IMG/VR virus record: IMGVR_UViG_3300032224_001591
Span: 32,001-96,000 of that record
Length of the DNA: 64,000 nt
From: a virus
Direction: 5' to 3' (one strand)
Shown here: in pieces, positions 3,631-62,526 of the stretch
Layout of the letters: each line of letters opens with the position of its first letter
How positions within the stretch are numbered: position 1 is the first letter of the stretch
Made by a program: the position numbers and the translations under genes
Notes under the pieces: model-generated
Told to the model about the DNA's origin: nothing
Database searches by the model: none
What the model saw: the letters and a program-made list of their open reading frames with translations, nothing else

Positions 3631-4635
3631 ATGGACAAAATTAAAAAATTAATCAAAGAAGCATTACTTAACCATAAACACGATTGTGGTTGTGGTTGTC
3701 ACGGTAAATGTGCTAAAGCACCTATGTTAAACGAAAACTTAGGCGCTAAAGTAATCATGACCGAAAACATGCAATACCATATTAATAATAAAAAAGCATT
3801 AACTGAAAACACATTCCGCTACGGTTCAAAAGCATTTTTAGATTTATGGGCTGAAGCTAGATATTTATATTCTCGCGACGTTATTAATTTATCAGGTGAA
3901 GATAAAATCATAGTAGAAACAACACATTTAGGTGAATATGGTTTATTTGAAGGTGAAATGGTACCTTTAGATTTACCTATCATGGAAGAAATGGATGAAG
4001 CTATAAGTGATGAAATTAAAGTAGGAGATATTGTAGGTAATACTGTTCAAGGATTTAATTTTAAAGTATTAAATATTAAAGGTGATAAATTAGAAGTTGA
4101 AAATATAAAAACAGGTAAAAAATTTGAAACATACATTGATAACATGTATTTACCTGTTATGGAAGAAGTTGATGAAGCTATAAGTGGTGCTGATAAAGAT
4201 GAAATTTTTGCTCTAATATCAAAAGTAAAACAACAAGGCAAATTATCCGATGATACTCAACGTATGTTGATGCAATGGATAAGTCATCCGGATGCTTCAA
4301 AAGAAGCAATCGTTCAAGTATTAAAACAATTAACTGGTATTGTGGGTGAAGCTAAAGATAATAAACACGTTTTAAATAAACCACATCGTGGTGGATCTAA
4401 AAAATTCTATGTTTACGTTCGTAATCCTAAAACTAAAAAAATTAAAAAAGTATCATTCGGTGATACATCAGGATTATCAGCTAAAATTAATAATCCTACA
4501 GCACGTAAAGCATTTTCTGCACGTCACGATTGTCCAAATAAAAAAGATAAAACTAAAGCTTCATATTGGTCATGTCATTTGCCTAGATATGCTAAAGCAC
4601 TAGGACTTAAATCTAACTTTTCAGGATTCTGGTAG
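3631..4635 (+). CDS. Modular head-associated protein with Cys/His-rich N-terminus and basic C-terminal domain
   Basis: Leader MDKIKKLIKEALL; HKHDCGCGCHGKC; C-terminal KKVSFGD...ARKAFSARHDC...YWSC module. Confidence 0.6.
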   Translation: MDKIKKLIKEALLNHKHDCGCGCHGKCAKAPMLNENLGAKVIMTENMQYHINNKKALTENTFRYGSKAFLDLWAEARYLYSRDVINLSGEDKIIVETTHLGEYGLFEGEMVPLDLPIMEEMDEAISDEIKVGDIVGNTVQGFNFKVLNIKGDKLEVENIKTGKKFETYIDNMYLPVMEEVDEAISGADKDEIFALISKVKQQGKLSDDTQRMLMQWISHPDASKEAIVQVLKQLTGIVGEAKDNKHVLNKPHRGGSKKFYVYVRNPKTKKIKKVSFGDTSGLSAKINNPTARKAFSARHDCPNKKDKTKASYWSCHLPRYAKALGLKSNFSGFW

Positions 4636-16399: not shown

Positions 16400-16987
16400 A
16401 TGGCAACATTACAAGACCAATATAATCAAATTCAAGAAGGTAAAGGTGATAAAAACCACTTCTTAAAACAAGCACGTCATTTATTTCCTGATTACGTTAA
16501 TCACTATAATAATTTTGACGAAACTGTTAAAATTTTAAAAGGTAAAAGTATTTTATCTGAACATAGAGGTGGTTTAGGTATGGTATCTACAAACGGTAAA
16601 CGTGTTGAAGATTGGATTACTATATTTCAAGAAGCAGTTAAAGCAACAGAAACAAAAGTATCTAAAGAAGTATTAGATACTCAAGCTCATAATTGGGATA
16701 CTAAAGATATGAAAGAAATTGACAATTTATATGGTCAAGCTTTTTTAAATGGATTTTATGATGAGATGAAAGATCCTAAAAATCAAGATAAAACAGTAGA
16801 TCAAGTAAAACAACTTGTAGCTAAAAATTTAGGTAAAGATATATTATATTATACTACTAAAGCTCAATTCGGTGTTAAAGGTATTGGATATCAAACAGAA
16901 GCACCAGGTTTAGGTACTCCTAAAGAACCAAAAGGAAAATATAAAGCAAGTGGATACGGTGATTTACCTAAAAATAAAAAAGACTAA
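16400..16987 (+). CDS. Hypothetical head-module protein
   Basis: 195-aa ORF coupled to the protease gene by a TAATG overlap. Confidence 0.6.
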   Translation: MATLQDQYNQIQEGKGDKNHFLKQARHLFPDYVNHYNNFDETVKILKGKSILSEHRGGLGMVSTNGKRVEDWITIFQEAVKATETKVSKEVLDTQAHNWDTKDMKEIDNLYGQAFLNGFYDEMKDPKNQDKTVDQVKQLVAKNLGKDILYYTTKAQFGVKGIGYQTEAPGLGTPKEPKGKYKASGYGDLPKNKKD

Positions 16988-17589
16988 TGAAACAAGTATT
17001 AATCGAAACCATACCATTTAGCGTTTCACCAATACAATTACATGAAGGTGTTAAAGCACCATCAGGTAATCCTTTGGTTGAAGGTATTTTAGCTACAGCT
17101 GAAGTAAAAAACGGTAATGGTAGATATTATTCTAAAGATTTATGGGAACGCGAAATAGACAAATATATGTCTAGCGTTAAAGAAAACAGAGCAACAGGCG
17201 AATTAGACCACCCAGATTCAACTATTATTTCCCTTAAAAATGTATCTCATATTATTAGAGATATTTGGTGGAATGGAGATAAAGTAATGGGTAAAATAGA
17301 AATCTTACCAACTGTATCAGGTAATATCTTAAAAGCACTTATTGACAATAATGTAATGGTAGGTGTATCATCTCGTGGTATGGGTAGTTTAAAACAAATA
17401 GGCGAAACCATGGAAGTACAAGATGATTTTGAATTACTATGTTGGGATTTCGTTTCAACACCTTCTAATCCAGGTTCATATATGAATGTTATTAAAGAAG
17501 GAAAAGAATTTAAACCATACCCATACAATAAAGTAAATAGTTTATTAACAGAAATTTTATGTGCTAATGGCACTTGTCCAATAATATAG
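16987..17589 (+). CDS. Prohead core protease (T4 gp21-like)
   Basis: NGNGRYY, GELDHP, VSH, GVSSRGMGS, DFVSTPS. Confidence 0.93.
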   Translation: MKQVLIETIPFSVSPIQLHEGVKAPSGNPLVEGILATAEVKNGNGRYYSKDLWEREIDKYMSSVKENRATGELDHPDSTIISLKNVSHIIRDIWWNGDKVMGKIEILPTVSGNILKALIDNNVMVGVSSRGMGSLKQIGETMEVQDDFELLCWDFVSTPSNPGSYMNVIKEGKEFKPYPYNKVNSLLTEILCANGTCPII

Positions 17590-17657: not shown

Positions 17658-17794
17658 AATCCTGTTGCGTTTTGAAGAATCCTAATATATGTATATTGGA
17701 ATATGCGATTATCTATATCGCATTTATTTAATCAATTCTATTACGCTTCCACATCTAATAAGCGTACTTCCAAAACAAAAATTTGAGGAAAATT

Positions 17795-18925
17795 ATGGCA
17801 AACAGAGACATTCTGAAAGAAGCTATTGCTGACGCTAAATCAATTAAAGAAGCAGCAATCGCAAACGCAAAAGTCGCTCTAGAAGAAGCCTTTACTCCGT
17901 ATCTAAAAGAAAAATTATCAGCTAAATTAGCTGAAATTGACGCTATGGACGAAGAAATGGATGAATCAAAAGAGATGGACGAAGCTGAAATTGACGAGTA
18001 TGGTGATGAACACCCAATGTCGACAAAAGACGCTTTAAAAGAAAAATCTATGGACGAAGAAATGGATGAAACCATGGACGAAGAAATGGACGAAATGAAA
18101 AAATCTATGGACGAAATGGACTTAGATGAGTTATTAAGAGAATTAGAAGACATGGAAGAAAACATGGACGAAGTAATCAACGATCCTAAAGGTCCAGGTG
18201 CTCACGGTAACGTTGCTCCTCCAGGACAATCTGACACTGACTTAAACGAAGCTAAAGAAGGCGACGAAGAAGAAGACGTTGAAATCGACATCGAAAACAT
18301 GTCTGAAGAAGATCTTAAATCATTTATTGAAGGCGTTATCGCTGACATGGTTGCGGCTGGCGAATTAGAAGCTGGTCACGAAGGTATGGAAGACGAAGAA
18401 GGCGCTGAAGATGAAGAAAGTGAAGAAGAAGTTTCATTAGACGAACTTATGGACGAAATGGAAGAAGGCTCAGGCTACGATGAAATGGCTAAAAATCAAG
18501 CAATGAAAAACTCTCATTACGAAAAAATGAAAGAAGAAATGGACGAAATGAAGAAAGAACTTGAAGAAGCTTATGAGGCTTTAAATAAAGTTAAATCTGA
18601 AATTAACGAAGTTAATCTTTTAAATTCTAAACTTCTTTACTTAAACAAAGTGTTTAAAGCTAAAAACTTAACTGAATCACAAAAAGTTAAAGTATTAGCT
18701 GCTTTTGACAAAGCAACAAGTAAAAAAGAAGCAAAATTAGTTTACGAAACAGTAATGGAAAGTTTAAACAACACAAACACTACAAAACGTCCAGTAACTG
18801 AATCCGTAAGAGGTATGGCTTCTAAAGTTATAAGCGGTACTACTAATAATAGTACAAAACAACCAATTATTGAAGTTAATGCTGCTTTCGAAAGAATGCA
18901 AAAATTAGCTGGAATTAAAAAGTAA
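17795..18925 (+). CDS. Prohead scaffold/core protein (T4 gp22-like position)
   Basis: Lies between protease and capsid; very acidic with MDE repeats and coiled coil; ends FERMQKLAGIKK. ATG at 17795 is preferred to TTG at 17783. Confidence 0.8.
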   Translation: MANRDILKEAIADAKSIKEAAIANAKVALEEAFTPYLKEKLSAKLAEIDAMDEEMDESKEMDEAEIDEYGDEHPMSTKDALKEKSMDEEMDETMDEEMDEMKKSMDEMDLDELLRELEDMEENMDEVINDPKGPGAHGNVAPPGQSDTDLNEAKEGDEEEDVEIDIENMSEEDLKSFIEGVIADMVAAGELEAGHEGMEDEEGAEDEESEEEVSLDELMDEMEEGSGYDEMAKNQAMKNSHYEKMKEEMDEMKKELEEAYEALNKVKSEINEVNLLNSKLLYLNKVFKAKNLTESQKVKVLAAFDKATSKKEAKLVYETVMESLNNTNTTKRPVTESVRGMASKVISGTTNNSTKQPIIEVNAAFERMQKLAGIKK

Positions 18926-18961: not shown

Positions 18962-20689
18962 ATGAGTCAAATTCAATCATTATTAGAATCTGCTAACCCA
19001 TACAAATCGTTACAAAGCGATGCAGCTAAATTAGCTAGCAAATGGGCAAAAACAGGCCTTTTAGAAGGCTTAGACGAGACAAACAGAAATAACATGTCTC
19101 TTATGCTTGAAAATCAAGCAAAACAATTAGTAAGCGAGGTATCATCTACTGGTACAGGTGCTTTCTTTACTCCAGGACAAGGTGAACAATGGGCTGGTAT
19201 CGCTTTACCGTTAGTACGTAAAGTGTTCGGTCAAATCGCATCTAAAGAATTCGTAAGCGTTCAACCGATGAACTTACCTTCTGGTCTTGTGTTCTTCTTA
19301 GATTTCCAATATGGAACTGGAAAGAATCCATTCGCAGTTAACAGTTCAGTTTATGGTACTACTGGTTCTCAGTATCCATTTGCTACTCCATCTGCATCTG
19401 GTGGTCTTTATGGCGCTGGTCGTTTCACGTATTCTACCAACCAATTTAGTGCTTCTGTTAATTTAACAGGTTCGGTTTCAGGTTCAGCATTACCTGCTAA
19501 CGTTGCAGCTAGTACAGCTACAGTAGTTACAGCTTCTTGGTCTAACTTGAACTTTGATTCTGATTACTCTGCTTCAGTTGCAGCAAATCAAATCTATGCA
19601 GTTACTGTTCCAACAGCTTCTACTGCTTTATCTGCATTTGACCAAGACGCAGTTCGTGGTTTTACTACTTACTACTCTGTAGGTACAGGCGTTACTGGTG
19701 CTACATTTGGTACAGGTTCAATTTTACCTGCATTTACCACTTATAACTACACTGCTAACACAATCACTTTCTACTACACTGCTTCTACAGCAATTACTGC
19801 AGCTAACCTTTCTGGTTCAATGACTATCTTCTATAATAAACAAACTGACGATAACCGTCGTGGTGATTTTGAAGATTCTACAGCAACTACGTTCTCTATT
19901 CCGAATGCGCAAAGTACTAGTACTATCGTAATTCCTGAGATCAACATCAGTATGCAATCACAAGAAATTACAGCTAAAACTAAAAAATTAAAAGCTGTAT
20001 GGACTCCTGAGTTTGCACAAGATTTGAATGCTTACCAAAATATCGATGCTGAAGCTGAATTAACTAACATGTTAAGCGAGTATATCTCTATGGAGATTGA
20101 TCTTGAAATCTTAGATATGTTGATTGAAGACGCTGCAGCTGGTACTGAATACTGGTCAGCAATCAATAACAACGTTTATAACGGTTCAACAGGTGCTTTC
20201 TCAACTGGTGGTTCTGCTTTCTATAACACTCAAGGACAATGGTTCCAAACTTTAGGAACAAAAATCCAAAAATTAAGCAATAAAATTCACCAATTAACTT
20301 TAAGAGGTGGTGCTAATTTCATGGTAATTTCTCCTACAGTAGCAACTATCATCGAATCTATCCCTGGATTTGCTTCTAACAACAATGGCGAAGCTGATCA
20401 AATGGAATACGCTTTCGGTGTACAAAAAGTTGGTTCATTCAATGGTCGTTACAAAGTTTACAAAAACCCTTACATGACTGAAAACACTATCTTATTAGGA
20501 TACCGTGGTACTCAGTTCTTGGAAGCAGGTGCTGTATTCGCTCCGTACATTCCGTTGATCATGACTCCATTAGTGTACGATCCAAATACCTTCACTCCAC
20601 GTAAAGGTCTATTAACTCGTTACGCTAAGAAAATGTTACGTCCTGAATTCTACGCTAAGATCTATGTTAATGGTTTAAATACCCTTTAA
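18962..20689 (+). CDS. Major capsid protein (T4 gp23-like) with Ser/Thr-rich insertion
   Basis: LPLVRKVF, VQPMNLPSGLVF, AKTKKLKAVWTPEFAQDL, DAEAEL, APYIPL, TRYA. Confidence 0.95.
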   Translation: MSQIQSLLESANPYKSLQSDAAKLASKWAKTGLLEGLDETNRNNMSLMLENQAKQLVSEVSSTGTGAFFTPGQGEQWAGIALPLVRKVFGQIASKEFVSVQPMNLPSGLVFFLDFQYGTGKNPFAVNSSVYGTTGSQYPFATPSASGGLYGAGRFTYSTNQFSASVNLTGSVSGSALPANVAASTATVVTASWSNLNFDSDYSASVAANQIYAVTVPTASTALSAFDQDAVRGFTTYYSVGTGVTGATFGTGSILPAFTTYNYTANTITFYYTASTAITAANLSGSMTIFYNKQTDDNRRGDFEDSTATTFSIPNAQSTSTIVIPEINISMQSQEITAKTKKLKAVWTPEFAQDLNAYQNIDAEAELTNMLSEYISMEIDLEILDMLIEDAAAGTEYWSAINNNVYNGSTGAFSTGGSAFYNTQGQWFQTLGTKIQKLSNKIHQLTLRGGANFMVISPTVATIIESIPGFASNNNGEADQMEYAFGVQKVGSFNGRYKVYKNPYMTENTILLGYRGTQFLEAGAVFAPYIPLIMTPLVYDPNTFTPRKGLLTRYAKKMLRPEFYAKIYVNGLNTL

Positions 20690-44554: not shown

Positions 44555-44564
44555 AATATTTATA
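44555..44564 (+). promoter_or_regulatory. Representative copy of putative late promoter WATATTTAT (about 20 copies)
   Basis: Also at about 3618, 6432, 10542, 12676, 14607, 20752, 21489, 24552, 42375, 44262, 46755, 47335, 47854, 48910, 51298, 59580 and 61932, each just upstream of a start codon. Confidence 0.65.
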
Positions 44565-57760: not shown

Positions 57761-57794
57761 TTTGGAGATTTAAAAAACAGGTCGTATATTTATA
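57761..57794 (+). promoter_or_regulatory. Promoter (-33 TTTG plus TATATTTATA)
   Basis: TTTG at 57761, 20-nt spacer, TATATTTA at 57785. Confidence 0.55.
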
Positions 57795-57812: not shown

Positions 57813-58478
57813 ATGAAAAAACAAATTAACGAAATTAAAAGAATGCAGCATATTGCTGGATTAATCACTGAAAGCGAATACCGTCAATCATTAAATGAAG
57901 AAACTAATGAAGAAACACTTGATGATGTTACTTTTACTTTAGATATGGCATTAAATAATATGTTTCCAATGTATGGATTTAAAGCAGGAGACACAGTTAC
58001 AGGTATTTTACCAGCTGAAGAATTTGCTGATGAAACTAAACGCAATAGTGCTGAGGATTTTCAAGCAGCACAAGCTTACATTAAGAATAAGGGAGGAGAA
58101 ATAAAAATTAATTCAAGTGATCCTTATCTTATGTTTAGAAATATAAACATAACATATAAATTGAAAGATAATGGAGATATTGAATACGCAGTAGAAGTTC
58201 CAGCTAAAAAAATGGACGAAGCTGAAATAAAAGAAGAAGAAAAAGGTCTTCCTTTTTTACTAGCTAAAACATGGTTAAACGAATATAATGGTAATATTCA
58301 ATTTGCGGTCCGTACAGAAGAGATTATAGGTTTTTTATACAATTTAAGAGATAAAGAATTTAAACAATATAAAGGAGAAATTGAACGTATGTACTTACCA
58401 TATAAAAAAGCTAAAGACGCTTTTGAAAAGTTATGGGATGAAGCATCTGTTTTTTCAGATAAAGATCTTAAAGACTAA
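57813..58478 (+). CDS. Putative capsid cargo protein (RMQ-x-x-AG leader)
   Basis: MKKQINEIKRMQHIAGLITESE. Confidence 0.7.
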   Translation: MKKQINEIKRMQHIAGLITESEYRQSLNEETNEETLDDVTFTLDMALNNMFPMYGFKAGDTVTGILPAEEFADETKRNSAEDFQAAQAYIKNKGGEIKINSSDPYLMFRNINITYKLKDNGDIEYAVEVPAKKMDEAEIKEEEKGLPFLLAKTWLNEYNGNIQFAVRTEEIIGFLYNLRDKEFKQYKGEIERMYLPYKKAKDAFEKLWDEASVFSDKDLKD

Positions 58479-58479
58479 A

Positions 58480-59111
58480 TAAATAATAAAAACATAAAAC
58501 ATGGCAAACGATTTTAAAAGAATGCAAAAATTAGCAGGTTTAATTACCGAAGCAAAGGCTGAAGTATATTCTTATGAGGCAACTCCGGAAAAACAAGCTT
58601 TATACGATAAAATTGCTACAGAATTAGAAAAACTTATTAAGGATATAGCTTCAAAACTAAAAATTAAACCATCTAACATTAGAATATCATGTGATGGGTT
58701 ATGGGATGATGGAGGTTATAAAAACAGAGGATTAGTAGTTCAAATTAAAGCTAATGATAATACATGGGAAAAACCATGGAAAGGAAATAATAGAATTATC
58801 CAAACCCCAAATAGTGAAGGTATATTAATACACCCCGGAATATCAGGTAATGGAATAGTTGGTCTAAAGTTAGATATGGATAACACGTATAATAAAGAAT
58901 TAGAAACTATTTACAAAAAAGCACGAGAACAAAATTTAGGTAAGTATGTATCCGATTTTAATGTTCAATTAGCAAACTCTCTTACACCACAAGAAATAAA
59001 ATTAATAGCACCAAACACTCCAATAATAGTAACCGGTAAATAATAAAAACATAAAACATGGCAAACGATTTTAAAAGAATGCAAAAATTGGCAGGTTTAA
59101 TTACCGAAGCA
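58480..59111 (+). repeat. 75-bp direct repeat (58480-58554 and 59037-59111) covering the initiation region and leader
   Basis: Identical except TTA versus TTG. Confidence 0.9.
58501..59043 (+). CDS. Putative capsid cargo protein (RMQKLAG leader)
   Basis: MANDFKRMQKLAGLITEA. Confidence 0.7.
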   Translation: MANDFKRMQKLAGLITEAKAEVYSYEATPEKQALYDKIATELEKLIKDIASKLKIKPSNIRISCDGLWDDGGYKNRGLVVQIKANDNTWEKPWKGNNRIIQTPNSEGILIHPGISGNGIVGLKLDMDNTYNKELETIYKKAREQNLGKYVSDFNVQLANSLTPQEIKLIAPNTPIIVTGK

Positions 59112-59567
59112 CAATCACAAAAATCAAAATATATCCTTACAGATGAAGAGGGTGATGTTTATTTAAACGACGATGCTATCAAATCATATCTTAAATCAGT
59201 AATCAATTCAGAAGAAATTGAATCTGTAAACGATTTTATGAACGATGAAGAAGGATTTGGAGAATCAGCAATGCATTTCTTTAAAGATGGTAGTGAAGAT
59301 ATATCGGATAAAGATGTTGAAGATTGGGCTAAACAAGAAATGAGCTACTATTTATATTCTGAACCTGATGAATTTCCAGGCAAAGAATTAAATGAAAATA
59401 TATCTGATGAAGCTATTGACCGTATGGAAGGTTTAGCTAACACACATCATTTATCAACTTTAAAATTCAGTTTAGAAAACCTAGTTCCAGAATGGATACA
59501 AGATGGAGGATTTGATGAAGATGATGTAATTGATTATTTAACACATTTAGTAAGAAACTCATACTAG
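59058..59567 (+). CDS. Putative capsid cargo protein (RMQKLAG leader), acidic
   Basis: MANDFKRMQKLAGLITEA. Confidence 0.7.
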   Translation: MANDFKRMQKLAGLITEAQSQKSKYILTDEEGDVYLNDDAIKSYLKSVINSEEIESVNDFMNDEEGFGESAMHFFKDGSEDISDKDVEDWAKQEMSYYLYSEPDEFPGKELNENISDEAIDRMEGLANTHHLSTLKFSLENLVPEWIQDGGFDEDDVIDYLTHLVRNSY

Positions 59568-59611
59568 TAAAAAAAATCATATATTTATTATAAACATATA
59601 ACTGATAAAAC

Positions 59612-60121
59612 ATGAAAAAACAAATTAACGAAATCAAAAGAATGCAACTTATCGCTGGTTTAATTACTGAAAGTGAATATCAAGAGTCAATGACTAAAAT
59701 AGACGAATCTAAAGATATTAACCAAACCCTAACATCAGGAGGTTTTGATCCTATCGATGATGAAAAATTATTGATGAAAGCATCAAAAATTCTATCTTTA
59801 ATAGGTGGTAATCCAAGTGCAGAAGCAGTTAATGCTCTTGTTATGGTTATTGAAGATGCTGAAGGTGGAAATATATCTTGGAATGAATCAATGAACGAAG
59901 CTGAAGATACTTTATCATCATTTAAATCATTAGATCAAATGAATGATTATCTTGAAAAAGGTGGTTGGGATCCATATGAAGTAGCAGATGAAAAAGCAGA
60001 AAAAAAAGGTTTAATGTTAATCAACAAATATATTAAATCTAATATTTTAGATAAAGGAAAAACTTTATCCCCAAATAAATTAAATGCTTTGTTAATAAAA
60101 ATCGAAGATTTACTTCCTTAA
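59612..60121 (+). CDS. Putative capsid cargo protein with two related internal modules
   Basis: MKKQINEIKRMQLIAGLITESE; GGFDP...AVNALV and GGWDP...KLNALL. Confidence 0.7.
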   Translation: MKKQINEIKRMQLIAGLITESEYQESMTKIDESKDINQTLTSGGFDPIDDEKLLMKASKILSLIGGNPSAEAVNALVMVIEDAEGGNISWNESMNEAEDTLSSFKSLDQMNDYLEKGGWDPYEVADEKAEKKGLMLINKYIKSNILDKGKTLSPNKLNALLIKIEDLLP

Positions 60122-60151
60122 TAAAACATAATTAAAATAAAAATTTAAATT

Positions 60152-60176
60152 AAGCTTGGGAAACCAAGCTTTTTTT
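60152..60176 (+). terminator. Intrinsic terminator
   Basis: AAGCTTGG-GAAA-CCAAGCTT plus T-run. Confidence 0.75.
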
Positions 60177-60204
60177 ATTATCGTTATCGGAGACAATAGA
60201 GGTT

Positions 60205-61485
60205 ATGGCATTTTACTTAATAGAAAATACGGAACAATTATCAACGTTTTATTACCAAGAGTTCAAACGAGCTTTTGTAGAAGTAATTCCGTTTAATGAT
60301 TTAGTACACCCAACCTTAAATAAAGTATCATTAGTGTATATTAAACCCTTAACGGATGATAACGAAAAAGGTTACATGATATGCATTGACCATAGTGAAG
60401 CATTAAACGTGCAAATAAAACACGTAAATCAAGTACTTAAAAGCTTTGACGAAATATATGTTAGAGACAAGAAAACGTTTTTATACTACTTTCAACTTAA
60501 AAGCAGCTTAGACATTACCCACACCACTCCTACGTATATACACCCCACAACGCAAGTCCACACACATTTTTATAATACGTATTCTTCGCGACTTGATATA
60601 AACCGCATTATACCGCTAGTTAAACACTACCAACGTTGTGAAGCCATATTTGAACAAGTAAAAGATCATTGTGTAACCTTAACTAGTAAAACAAATGATG
60701 TCTTAGCATATTCATTTCTATTTATTGAAAAAAACGGCATCAAAATAGATGAAACATTATTTAAACAATACTTTAAACCTACAAATGAGTCATTTAGCAT
60801 TAAAGACGGTAAGATTTATACACAATATAACTTACATACTACAACCGGACGCCCCTCAAATAGTTTTAACGGCGTTAATTTCGCGGCTCTAAACAAAGAC
60901 AACGGCTGCCGACAAGCATTCATACCGGAACATGATCGATTTATGGAAATCGATATTTCCGCCTATCACCCAAATATAGTAGCGCAACTTGTTGATTATC
61001 GGTTTGATAAACCGATTTACGAGGCATTTGCCGAATATGCTGGTGTTGAAATAAAGCAAGCGAAGGAATTGATGTTTAAACAACTATACGGAGGAATATA
61101 TACGGAATATAAACAATGGGAGTTTTTCATTAAAGTACAGGAATATATAGATAAAATCTGGGAACATTTTGAAACGCTTAATTGGGTTATGGTTCCGAAT
61201 TCGGGTAAGTATTTTTATAAGGATAGATTGGGTGAAATGAATCCGCAAAAGTTGTTTAATTATTTTTTACAAAATTTGGAGACCGTAAATAACAGTCGTA
61301 TCATTCAGGATATAATTAAGGTTTTAAGAGGTAAAAATACAAAGTTGGTTCTTTATACTTACGATGCGTTCCTGTTTGACTTAGATGATACGGAAAAAGA
61401 TATTATTGACGAATTAAAAGAGATATTCAGTTCCAGGGAACTGCAAATAAAATATAAATATGGAACAGATTACGACTTTGAATAA
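60205..61485 (+). CDS. Compact, atypical family-A DNA polymerase-like protein
   Basis: TTGRPS, EIDISAYHP (motif A), AKELMFKQLYGG (motif B), YTYDAFLFD (motif C). Confidence 0.75.
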   Translation: MAFYLIENTEQLSTFYYQEFKRAFVEVIPFNDLVHPTLNKVSLVYIKPLTDDNEKGYMICIDHSEALNVQIKHVNQVLKSFDEIYVRDKKTFLYYFQLKSSLDITHTTPTYIHPTTQVHTHFYNTYSSRLDINRIIPLVKHYQRCEAIFEQVKDHCVTLTSKTNDVLAYSFLFIEKNGIKIDETLFKQYFKPTNESFSIKDGKIYTQYNLHTTTGRPSNSFNGVNFAALNKDNGCRQAFIPEHDRFMEIDISAYHPNIVAQLVDYRFDKPIYEAFAEYAGVEIKQAKELMFKQLYGGIYTEYKQWEFFIKVQEYIDKIWEHFETLNWVMVPNSGKYFYKDRLGEMNPQKLFNYFLQNLETVNNSRIIQDIIKVLRGKNTKLVLYTYDAFLFDLDDTEKDIIDELKEIFSSRELQIKYKYGTDYDFE

Positions 61486-61933
61486 GCAGCGTAATATTTA
61501 TTGGGAGAATCTAAACGAAAGTTTTAACCTATTAAATATTACAGAATTGAATAATAGATTATTTTGTAGCTTTACTACCTTAGATGGCATCGATCCATTA
61601 GTAGAGAGTATAACAAATTCATATACGATAATGTACAACAAAATGTTTGTACTTTATATTAAGAGTACTGATGAGTACGTAGTTACATATAACGTTGAGC
61701 AAGGCAATGTTAGTGATATTCCTGACAATACTATATTGGTTCACAGGAAAAAGGAAAGCAATACATTATATACAATCAATGCGTTAAACGAGTTGATTAA
61801 AAAATTAAATGGTGGTGTTGTTAATCCTAAATTTATTATTGATTGGCAACATTATAGAAATTGTGTGTTGTTAACCAATCATAACGAGTTGAAACAATTG
61901 AATACTAAGATTTACAAGATAGTAGAGCTATAA
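61460..61933 (+). CDS. Hypothetical protein (start uncertain; may be TTG at 61547)
   Basis: LFCSF...TILVHRKKESNTLYTINALN. Confidence 0.6.
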   Translation: MEQITTLNKQRNIYWENLNESFNLLNITELNNRLFCSFTTLDGIDPLVESITNSYTIMYNKMFVLYIKSTDEYVVTYNVEQGNVSDIPDNTILVHRKKESNTLYTINALNELIKKLNGGVVNPKFIIDWQHYRNCVLLTNHNELKQLNTKIYKIVEL

Positions 61934-61959
61934 TATTTATACCGTACAAATAGAACACG

Positions 61960-62526
61960 ATGAACGAGTTTAAAAAAATGCAAAAATTGGCTGGTATTAT
62001 TACCGAGTCTCAATTAAACGAAGCTGAATTAGAAAATTATATGTTCTTTTCAAATTTAAAACAAATGAAAAGACAAATTGAAATGATGATGGAGATGGAT
62101 CCTGTTATGATTGATAGTATTCTTCAAAATGGCCATGATTGGGCTGACGATCATATTTCTGAAGCAAAAACTAATATGGATCAAGTATTTGATTTTTTAA
62201 AAAATGAAATGGATAAAAGTTATCCATTAAACGAAGAAGTATATGGTGGTCAATCCGTAGATAGAGGTGAAACTGGATCTTCAATTGAATTTGAAGTAAA
62301 AGAAAACACACCAGAATATTATACAATTGATTATACTATTACTCCTAATTCAAAATATTCATCTAGATCTGCTGCTAGAAATTATGTACGTACTAAAAAA
62401 AGCGGAACAGCACGAATTAAAAAAAATTACGATTCATCTCAAAAAGAATGGATAACAGTAGAAGGCGATAGTTTTCTCGTAGGTAAACAGTTCGCAAAAG
62501 AAATATTCGGCGATAAAATGGATTAA
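61960..62526 (+). CDS. Putative capsid cargo protein (KMQKLAG leader)
   Basis: MNEFKKMQKLAGIITESQLNEAE; AATATTTATA upstream. Confidence 0.7.
   Translation: MNEFKKMQKLAGIITESQLNEAELENYMFFSNLKQMKRQIEMMMEMDPVMIDSILQNGHDWADDHISEAKTNMDQVFDFLKNEMDKSYPLNEEVYGGQSVDRGETGSSIEFEVKENTPEYYTIDYTITPNSKYSSRSAARNYVRTKKSGTARIKKNYDSSQKEWITVEGDSFLVGKQFAKEIFGDKMD

Follow-up and report, generated by a model that had tools for sequence, protein, structure and literature searches.

N-terminal leaders resembling the scaffold's terminal peptide mark diverse small proteins as candidate capsid cargo in aquatic T4-like phages

Introduction

In bacteriophage T4, a capsid-targeting sequence (CTS) is carried by the internal proteins IPI-III and by the Alt propeptide, and gp21 cuts it off (Mullaney and Black 1996, cited in PMC9958956, PMC3012670 and PMC5694885). 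The T4 internal proteins are diverse, and the conserved CTS is their sole common part (PMC3012670). After thirty years of knowledge and use of this sequence, its binding partner is still to be shown (PMC9958956). In Staphylococcus phage 80alpha, the scaffold ends in a helix-and-hook tail that binds the N-arm of the capsid protein, and this tail is copied by CpmB of SaPI1 (PMC5644958). Here we describe a short N-terminal leader, shared by otherwise unrelated small proteins and followed by a protease-type site, that resembles the C-terminal tail of the scaffolding protein of the same phage. It lies in a 64,000-nucleotide window of IMG/VR virus record IMGVR_UViG_3300032224_001591 (bases 32001-96000 of a 147,248-bp phage genome, 32% G+C). 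Comparison of these sequences leads us to regard it as moderately probable that the leaders are load-and-clip propeptides of the T4 CTS kind which reuse the docking peptide of the scaffold.

Seven unrelated proteins begin with the same leader peptide

The leader-bearing open reading frames (ORFs) of the window and the scaffold gene are listed below; positions are those of the window unless a genome position is given.

57813-58478, + strand: putative cargo ORF 1, 221 residues; leader MKKQINEIKRMQHIAGLITE at 57813-57872, then the cut site and S; no Pfam or PHROG family
58501-59043, + strand: putative cargo ORF 2, 180 residues; leader MANDFKRMQKLAGLITE at 58501-58551, then the cut site and A; no family match; body without an [LI]xE site
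59058-59567, + strand: putative cargo ORF 3, 169 residues; leader MANDFKRMQKLAGLITE at 59058-59108, then the cut site and A
59612-60121, + strand: putative cargo ORF 4, 169 residues; leader MKKQINEIKRMQLIAGLITE at 59612-59671, then the cut site and S
61960-62526, + strand: putative cargo ORF 5, 188 residues; leader MNEFKKMQKLAGIITE at 61960-62007, then the cut site and S
17795-18925, + strand: head scaffolding protein analogous to gp22, encoded between protease and major capsid protein; acidic and helical
18875-18922, + strand: scaffold tail peptide VNAAFERMQKLAGIKK, immediately preceded by the conserved protease-type site P-I-I-E

The scaffold ORF terminates in FERMQKLAGIKK and its stop codon (18887-18925). 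A six-frame translation of the window contained the pattern MQ..AG six times, at the C-terminus of the scaffold and at the N-termini of the five ORFs only, well beyond what chance would give; the coordinates and peptides that a first-pass annotation of this DNA had reported for these six places were all correct. When the whole genome was scanned with the same pattern, we found two further leader ORFs upstream of the window, at genome positions 28192 (MKKQINEFKRMQQLAGIKLNE, with the cut site L-N-E) and 30861 (MANNFKRMQLIAGLITE), along with one unrelated chance match. The seven leaders are 16-20 residues long, share the core [FI]-[KR]-[RK]-M-Q-x-[LI]-A-G-[LI]-I, and end in a cut site that reads I-T-E in six and L-N-E in one. 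Their copies differ at synonymous sites, and therefore it is the peptide that is conserved and not the DNA.

Beyond the leader, the proteins have little in common. Pairwise BLASTP comparison of the seven bodies gave no pair with an E value below 0.1, in agreement with the complete divergence noted by the first-pass annotation. The cargo proteins of the window matched no Pfam or PHROG family, and the ESM Atlas returned nothing usable for ORF 58501. Four of the genes stand head to tail with gaps of 14-44 nucleotides, and a polymerase-like fragment and a small ORF lie between them and the fifth.

The leader resembles the C-terminal tail of the scaffold

Both termini of the scaffold are conserved among 74 relatives. 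Its likely start is the ATG at 17795 (MANRDILKEAIADAK), as in the relatives; the ORF list places the start at a TTG at 17783. The tail motif R-[MWF]-x-x-[LI]-A-[GF], with 1-6 further residues behind it, closed all 74 of the scaffolds that adjoin related capsid genes, and it was also found in Flavobacterium phage immuto (RWQKLAGIIK), Microcystis phage Mel-JY01 (RMKKLAGIVK) and Rhodothermus phage RM378 (RIKRLAGL). The gp22 proteins of T4 (ending VYAKVASRF) and of cyanophage Syn33 (ending VDAIARWSK) are both without it. An [LIVM]xE site of the P-I-I-E type lies 6-10 residues ahead of the tail in 71 of the 74 scaffolds.

A 14-column profile was built from 72 IMG/VR scaffold tails; it included no leaders, and this phage and its two nearest relatives were excluded. 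Searched against all ORFs of the genome, this profile placed the scaffold at the top and, directly below it, the seven leaders and no other ORF (E values from 9e-6 to 0.27), aligning all seven at residues 5-17. The ORF that came after these had a lower score and an alignment that was not N-terminal. The same outcome was obtained in the relatives G4, G5, immuto and G11, and three other genomes gave the scaffold only. The likeness between leader and scaffold tail that the first-pass annotation had proposed was thus recovered by a profile made from tails alone.

Structure prediction with AlphaFold2 (AF2) for the last 110 residues of the scaffold gave a three-helix unit, a low-confidence linker, a helix at residues 97-105 (AAFERMQKL) and a non-helical end of 5 residues. 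A 36-mer containing the leader was predicted as a confident helix. A sequence search of the PDB with the scaffold end found no meaningful match.

A protease-type site follows the leader and is depleted in the bodies

The genome encodes a protease of the family that processes T4 heads, as the first-pass annotation had stated:

16987-17589, + strand: prohead protease of the T4 gp21 family; Pfam Peptidase_S77 (PF03420), E value 4.8e-29, 101.7 bits against a cut-off of 27

The I-T-E that ends most leaders is a documented gp21 site, since in T4 this protease cleaves Alt after I-T-E (PMC5694885). Among the 148 matches listed from a scan of IMG/VR (described below), the residue after I-T-E (P1') was S, G, N or A in 132, and a second [LIVM]xE followed 4-12 residues downstream in 90. 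Many leaders, both those of the window and those at IMG/VR loci L008-L127, continue after I-T-E with the semi-conserved stretch [SG]-[EQ]-Y-[KR]-x-x-[LM]-[NS]-E; some copies of this genome show SEY-x-x-S/L-x-E there. Such a stretch could offer a second cut site 9 residues past I-T-E.

We compared counts of [LI]xE with those in composition-preserving shuffles, a comparison in which the sequences are partly non-independent and only composition is kept. The ratios of observed to expected sites were as follows:

118 cargo bodies: 0.78 (169 observed, 216.7 expected, z -3.6)
412 other ORFs of 100-300 residues: 1.23
Mature capsid proteins: 1.15
Scaffolds: 1.58

Two control motifs were enriched in the same cargo bodies ([LI]xD at 1.31 and E-x-[LI] at about 1.28). 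Depletion of the cut motif in the bodies and its abundance in the scaffolds are what would be expected if the protease reaches both and the bodies alone have to withstand it. Because sites flank the peptide in scaffold and cargo, proteolysis would free a peptide of 16 residues from the scaffold and one of 16-20 residues from every cargo protein; the two kinds of peptide would be much alike.

Leaders occur on many unrelated proteins across related phages

Scanning IMG/VR with the pattern MQx[LI]AG[LI]ITE gave at least 148 matches in at least 120 stretches, and at least 26 stretches carried two or more matches. Placement was predominantly N-terminal, with 126 of the 148 matches listed (85%) lying no more than 14 residues from the first methionine. 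The 129 N-terminally tagged proteins among the matches listed fell into 79 unrelated body clusters, and a Pfam search with 86 representative cargo proteins found no real family. Homologues of ORF 57813 (P0009, P0011, P0015, P0018, P0019 and P0021) showed that domains are freely shuffled behind the leader. In other phages, its N-domain is joined to the C-domain of ORF 59058. The C-domain of ORF 57813, for its part, comes after other middle domains and, in one case, after a different leader, MRKLKE|S. The portability that the first-pass annotation ascribed to the tag is therefore borne out by both the clusters and the shuffled domains.

A dozen of the listed matches are internal or C-terminal in long helical proteins, which argues that the peptide would work regardless of its position, as expected of a docking module. 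In G5 (G005:C1, about 19155-20190), the motif with I-T-E is internal, with 140 residues before it and 197 after. Similar internal or terminal copies with I-T-E were seen in G012:C1 (about 126300, minus strand), L049, L073 and L122, the last in a protein of more than 900 residues that ends in RMQKLAGLITESDIKKK. These long helical proteins may be second scaffold-like proteins or fusions of scaffold and cargo.

Outside phage collections the motif is rare: 596 Gb of prokaryote genomes gave 13 matches, of which 9 were internal chance matches and 4 were leader-like ORFs on contigs of metagenome-assembled genomes. A DNA search with the leader-gene array gave no match among cultured phages.

The number of leaders per genome ranges from 0 to 7, with seven in the present phage, four and one internal copy in a 163-kb relative, three in a 159-kb relative, two in immuto and one in G11. 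The tail is present in all relatives and the leaders in a part of the clade only, and therefore the tail looks like the older and wider element and the leaders like a later, accessory use of it. Derivation of the leader from the scaffold, as the first-pass annotation had it, fits this distribution, in which the universal tail reaches as far as Mel-JY01 and RM378.

A late-promoter-like motif precedes leader and virion genes

Two copies of a short motif precede leader genes of the window:

57786-57794, + strand: ATATTTATA, late-promoter-like motif, 27 nucleotides before the start of ORF 1
61933-61941, + strand: ATATTTATA, second copy, before ORF 5

Genome-wide, ATATTTATA occurs 33 times on the plus strand and twice on the minus strand (other copies are, for example, at 44556 and 46756). 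Most copies lie 12-52 nucleotides ahead of a gene start, including those of sheath, tube and baseplate genes and of three leader genes. This placement suggests ATATTTATA as a candidate late promoter of the phage group. Since the leader genes share the motif with virion genes, the two sets would be co-expressed late.

Proposed mechanism and alternative explanations

The sequences themselves show the shared and specific motif, its portability, the protease family and the scarcity of cut sites in the bodies; how the tagged proteins dock, which receptor they use, whether they are cleaved, and whether they stay in the head and are injected are matters that we infer. The leader genes would be expressed late, together with the head genes, and the leader would dock its protein in the assembling prohead at a site that also takes the scaffold tail. 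This site would most probably be the inner face or the N-terminal part of the gp23-type capsid protein. The gp21-type S77 protease would then cut after I-T-E and, in many cases, a second time behind an L-N-E close by, releasing the body from the docking peptide; the P-I-I-E site of the scaffold, on the other side of the peptide, would do the mirror-image job. The mature bodies would remain in the head. Judging from the sequences, the tagged proteins probably enter the capsid through the docking site of the scaffold itself.

The candidate receptor, chosen by analogy, is encoded directly downstream of the scaffold gene, in a head module with the order protease, scaffold, capsid protein:

18962-20689, + strand: major capsid protein of the T4 gp23 type; 55% identity to the major capsid protein of Flavobacterium phage immuto, weaker matches to gp23 of T4-like phages

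Identity of this protein is 49% to its counterpart in Microcystis phage Mel-JY01 and 34% to that in Rhodothermus phage RM378, and its N-terminal 60 residues are almost invariant among 73 relatives. It is possible, and we put it forward tentatively, that leader and scaffold tail are rivals for a single pocket of this protein, on its inner face or its N-arm. A complex prediction that paired the capsid protein (alignment of 73 rows) with the leader 36-mer (alignment of 92 rows) scored 0.00, a result that weighs neither way. When columns of the capsid protein alignment were compared with the class of the tail (M, W or F), 7 of the 25 most associated columns lay within the first 70 residues (alignment residues 3, 12, 13, 63, 64, 67 and 68). 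We give this association no weight because the tail classes follow phylogeny, which is its probable driver.

Several observations weigh against the reading of the leaders as propeptides that borrow the docking site of the scaffold. Co-variation between leader and scaffold C-terminus, for which the first-pass annotation had proposed a test, failed to appear in genomes that hold both (tails with M, W or F and with LAG or AFG were compared). Canonical M/L...LAG leaders co-occur with W scaffolds (immuto and G11), with F scaffolds (G2 and G6) and with an A-F-G scaffold (the contig of L184 and L048), and the leaders therefore evolve as a family of their own, without tracking the resident scaffold. 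The leader is also not essential, for the scaffold tail is present with no leader at all in G13 and G14, both rated 100% complete, and in Mel-JY01 and RM378. The latter two were scanned whole by regular expression. Six of the seven bodies are net acidic; the DNA-associated IPII and IPIII of T4 are basic. Moreover, the leader peptide runs on into the body, whereas the scaffold peptide has a free C-terminus, so the short tail of the leader cannot bind identically before cleavage. Finally, in the T4 literature the CTS belongs to the scaffolding core, whose structure is described as unresolved (PMC9958956, PMC3012670), and coat binding is therefore proposed here by analogy, namely with P22 and 80alpha, in preference to binding of the tail to another component of the core. 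The cargo-tag interpretation given by the first-pass annotation hence finds partial support, as regards the likeness of the two peptides, portability, the protease and the direction of derivation, and finds none as regards co-variation.

The last of these points leads to the strongest alternative, which we consider rather unlikely. Here the leader would again be a capsid-targeting propeptide, and its partner would be the scaffolding core, through like-with-like co-assembly with scaffold tails or through another part of the scaffold. In accounts of T4, the CTS steers proteins to the scaffolding core (PMC3012670, PMC5694885). In T4 sequences (the T4 record, L171:118-927 and L288:1630-2416), IPII and IPIII begin with MKTYQEFIAEA and gp22 with MLKEQLIAEA, so the T4 CTS too resembles an end of the scaffold, the N-terminal one. 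A core partner would also explain the lack of co-variation with the tail as easily as coat binding does. However, the solved C-terminal tails of scaffolds bind the N-arm of the coat protein (80alpha, PMC5644958), and in the AF2 model the tail sits behind a long disordered linker, as tails that reach the coat do.

Less probable again, and in our view doubtful, is the possibility that the tagged proteins are auxiliary core or scaffold proteins comparable to gp67 and gp68 of T4, which would enter the core on assembly and then be degraded rather than kept or delivered. The acidity of six of the seven bodies, a property of the scaffold as well, would suit such a role, as would the relatives in which long helical proteins of scaffold-like character bear the motif internally or terminally. 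Against it, [LI]xE is depleted in the bodies (0.78) and enriched in the scaffolds (1.58), and the range of 0-7 copies among close relatives, the 79 clusters and the shuffled domains fit accessory arms-race genes better than parts of an assembly. An N-terminus unconnected with head assembly (a relic of recombination involving the scaffold gene, an element of translation start or a signal serving another process) is very improbable, because, although some copies are alike in their upstream DNA too, the synonymous differences point to selection at the peptide level, the leader is conserved on unrelated bodies across at least 120 environmental stretches and lacks hydrophobic signal-peptide character, a protease-type site always follows, the motif is also found internally and C-terminally, and the bodies avoid the cut motif.

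Neighbouring genes and a second class of leaders

Inside the leader-gene array, an ORF of 426 residues (60205-61485) has a weak partial match to family-A DNA polymerase (E value 3e-4, under the Pfam cut-off). Split family-A polymerase genes are annotated in immuto. Gene 3 of immuto was considered as a counterpart of ORF 61960; it occupies the same syntenic position but is unrelated to it.

A second class of short N-terminal leaders ending in L-x-E (for example MIKLLKILKE|A, MVKLIHLLTE|A, MIKLSKILNE|A and MDKIKKLIKE|A) was seen on unrelated proteins, including a P-loop kinase-like one. These lie at 3631, 5931, 6450 and 6764 of the window, at genome position 117967 (85967 in window numbering, beyond its end), and at genome positions 9568, 24481 and 25278 (L007:4478 and 5278). 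They resemble the T4 CTS in form. We considered whether they copy the N-terminus of the scaffold (MANRDILKE|A) and found no significant likeness beyond the cut motif; a profile of scaffold N-termini scored them at only 1-5 bits.

Discussion

The leader described here is used in a large clade of aquatic T4-like phages, where the tag is visibly the terminal peptide of the scaffold; it points to one concrete candidate receptor and shows how such tags can arise. Our literature search found no mention of the leader motif and no description of a CTS resembling a scaffold tail. The leader also marks small proteins of great diversity, probably packaged in the virion, as candidates for roles early in infection or against host defence in Bacteroidota phages. 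It would offer a natural loading tag where the host of a phage is not Escherichia coli. If leader and scaffold tail do share a pocket on the capsid protein, this clade would show what a capsid-targeting sequence binds. In that case docking by a helix and a short tail, as in 80alpha, would be an old and general code of HK97-fold shells, one that phages could copy onto any protein, and the tag would be transferable to engineered cargo.

Loading of a passenger through a dedicated peptide has counterparts in several shells. In herpesvirus UL26/UL26.5, in lambda C/Nu3 and in the HK97 protease with its C-terminal targeting tail, the passenger enters the procapsid via the docking end of the scaffold or via a dedicated tail. 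Those cases concern a single essential enzyme with a C-terminal signal, usually from nested genes, whereas here many non-essential proteins carry an N-terminal copy that would be clipped off. The cargo-loading peptides of encapsulins are likewise short and conserved and dock unrelated cargo to the inner face of an HK97-fold shell, but encapsulins are cellular compartments without scaffold, protease or DNA, and their peptide stays on.

The 80alpha tail and CpmB are closer in form. There, as here, a short amphipathic helix and a few terminal residues stand at the extreme C-terminus of the scaffold (RIIK in 80alpha; AGIIK or AGIKK here), a likeness of modelled form, and a second protein bears the peptide of the scaffold, in the 80alpha case in order to use the scaffold's site. 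The copy in CpmB is C-terminal, belongs to a competing satellite scaffold and alters capsid size. The copies described here are N-terminal in 126 of the 148 listed matches, belong to accessory proteins of the phage itself and are followed by a protease site; because of this N-terminal placement, the leader would at most work like the 80alpha/CpmB family and is no member of it.

The T4 CTS system is the nearest relative in design. Both systems have a short N-terminal propeptide, a putative one in the present phage, on otherwise unrelated, fast-evolving small proteins, ending in [LI]-x-E (I-T-E in Alt), and both genomes hold a gp21-family (S77) protease and a T4-type head module. The leader differs in showing no likeness to MKTYQEFIAE, the x-E cut motif being all that the two have in common, in its greater length of 16-20 residues, in copying the C-terminal tail of the scaffold and in its mostly acidic bodies. 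What would be new relative to T4, as the sequences suggest, is a tag that consists of the terminal docking peptide of the scaffold, moved to the N-terminus of other proteins and joined there to a cut site.

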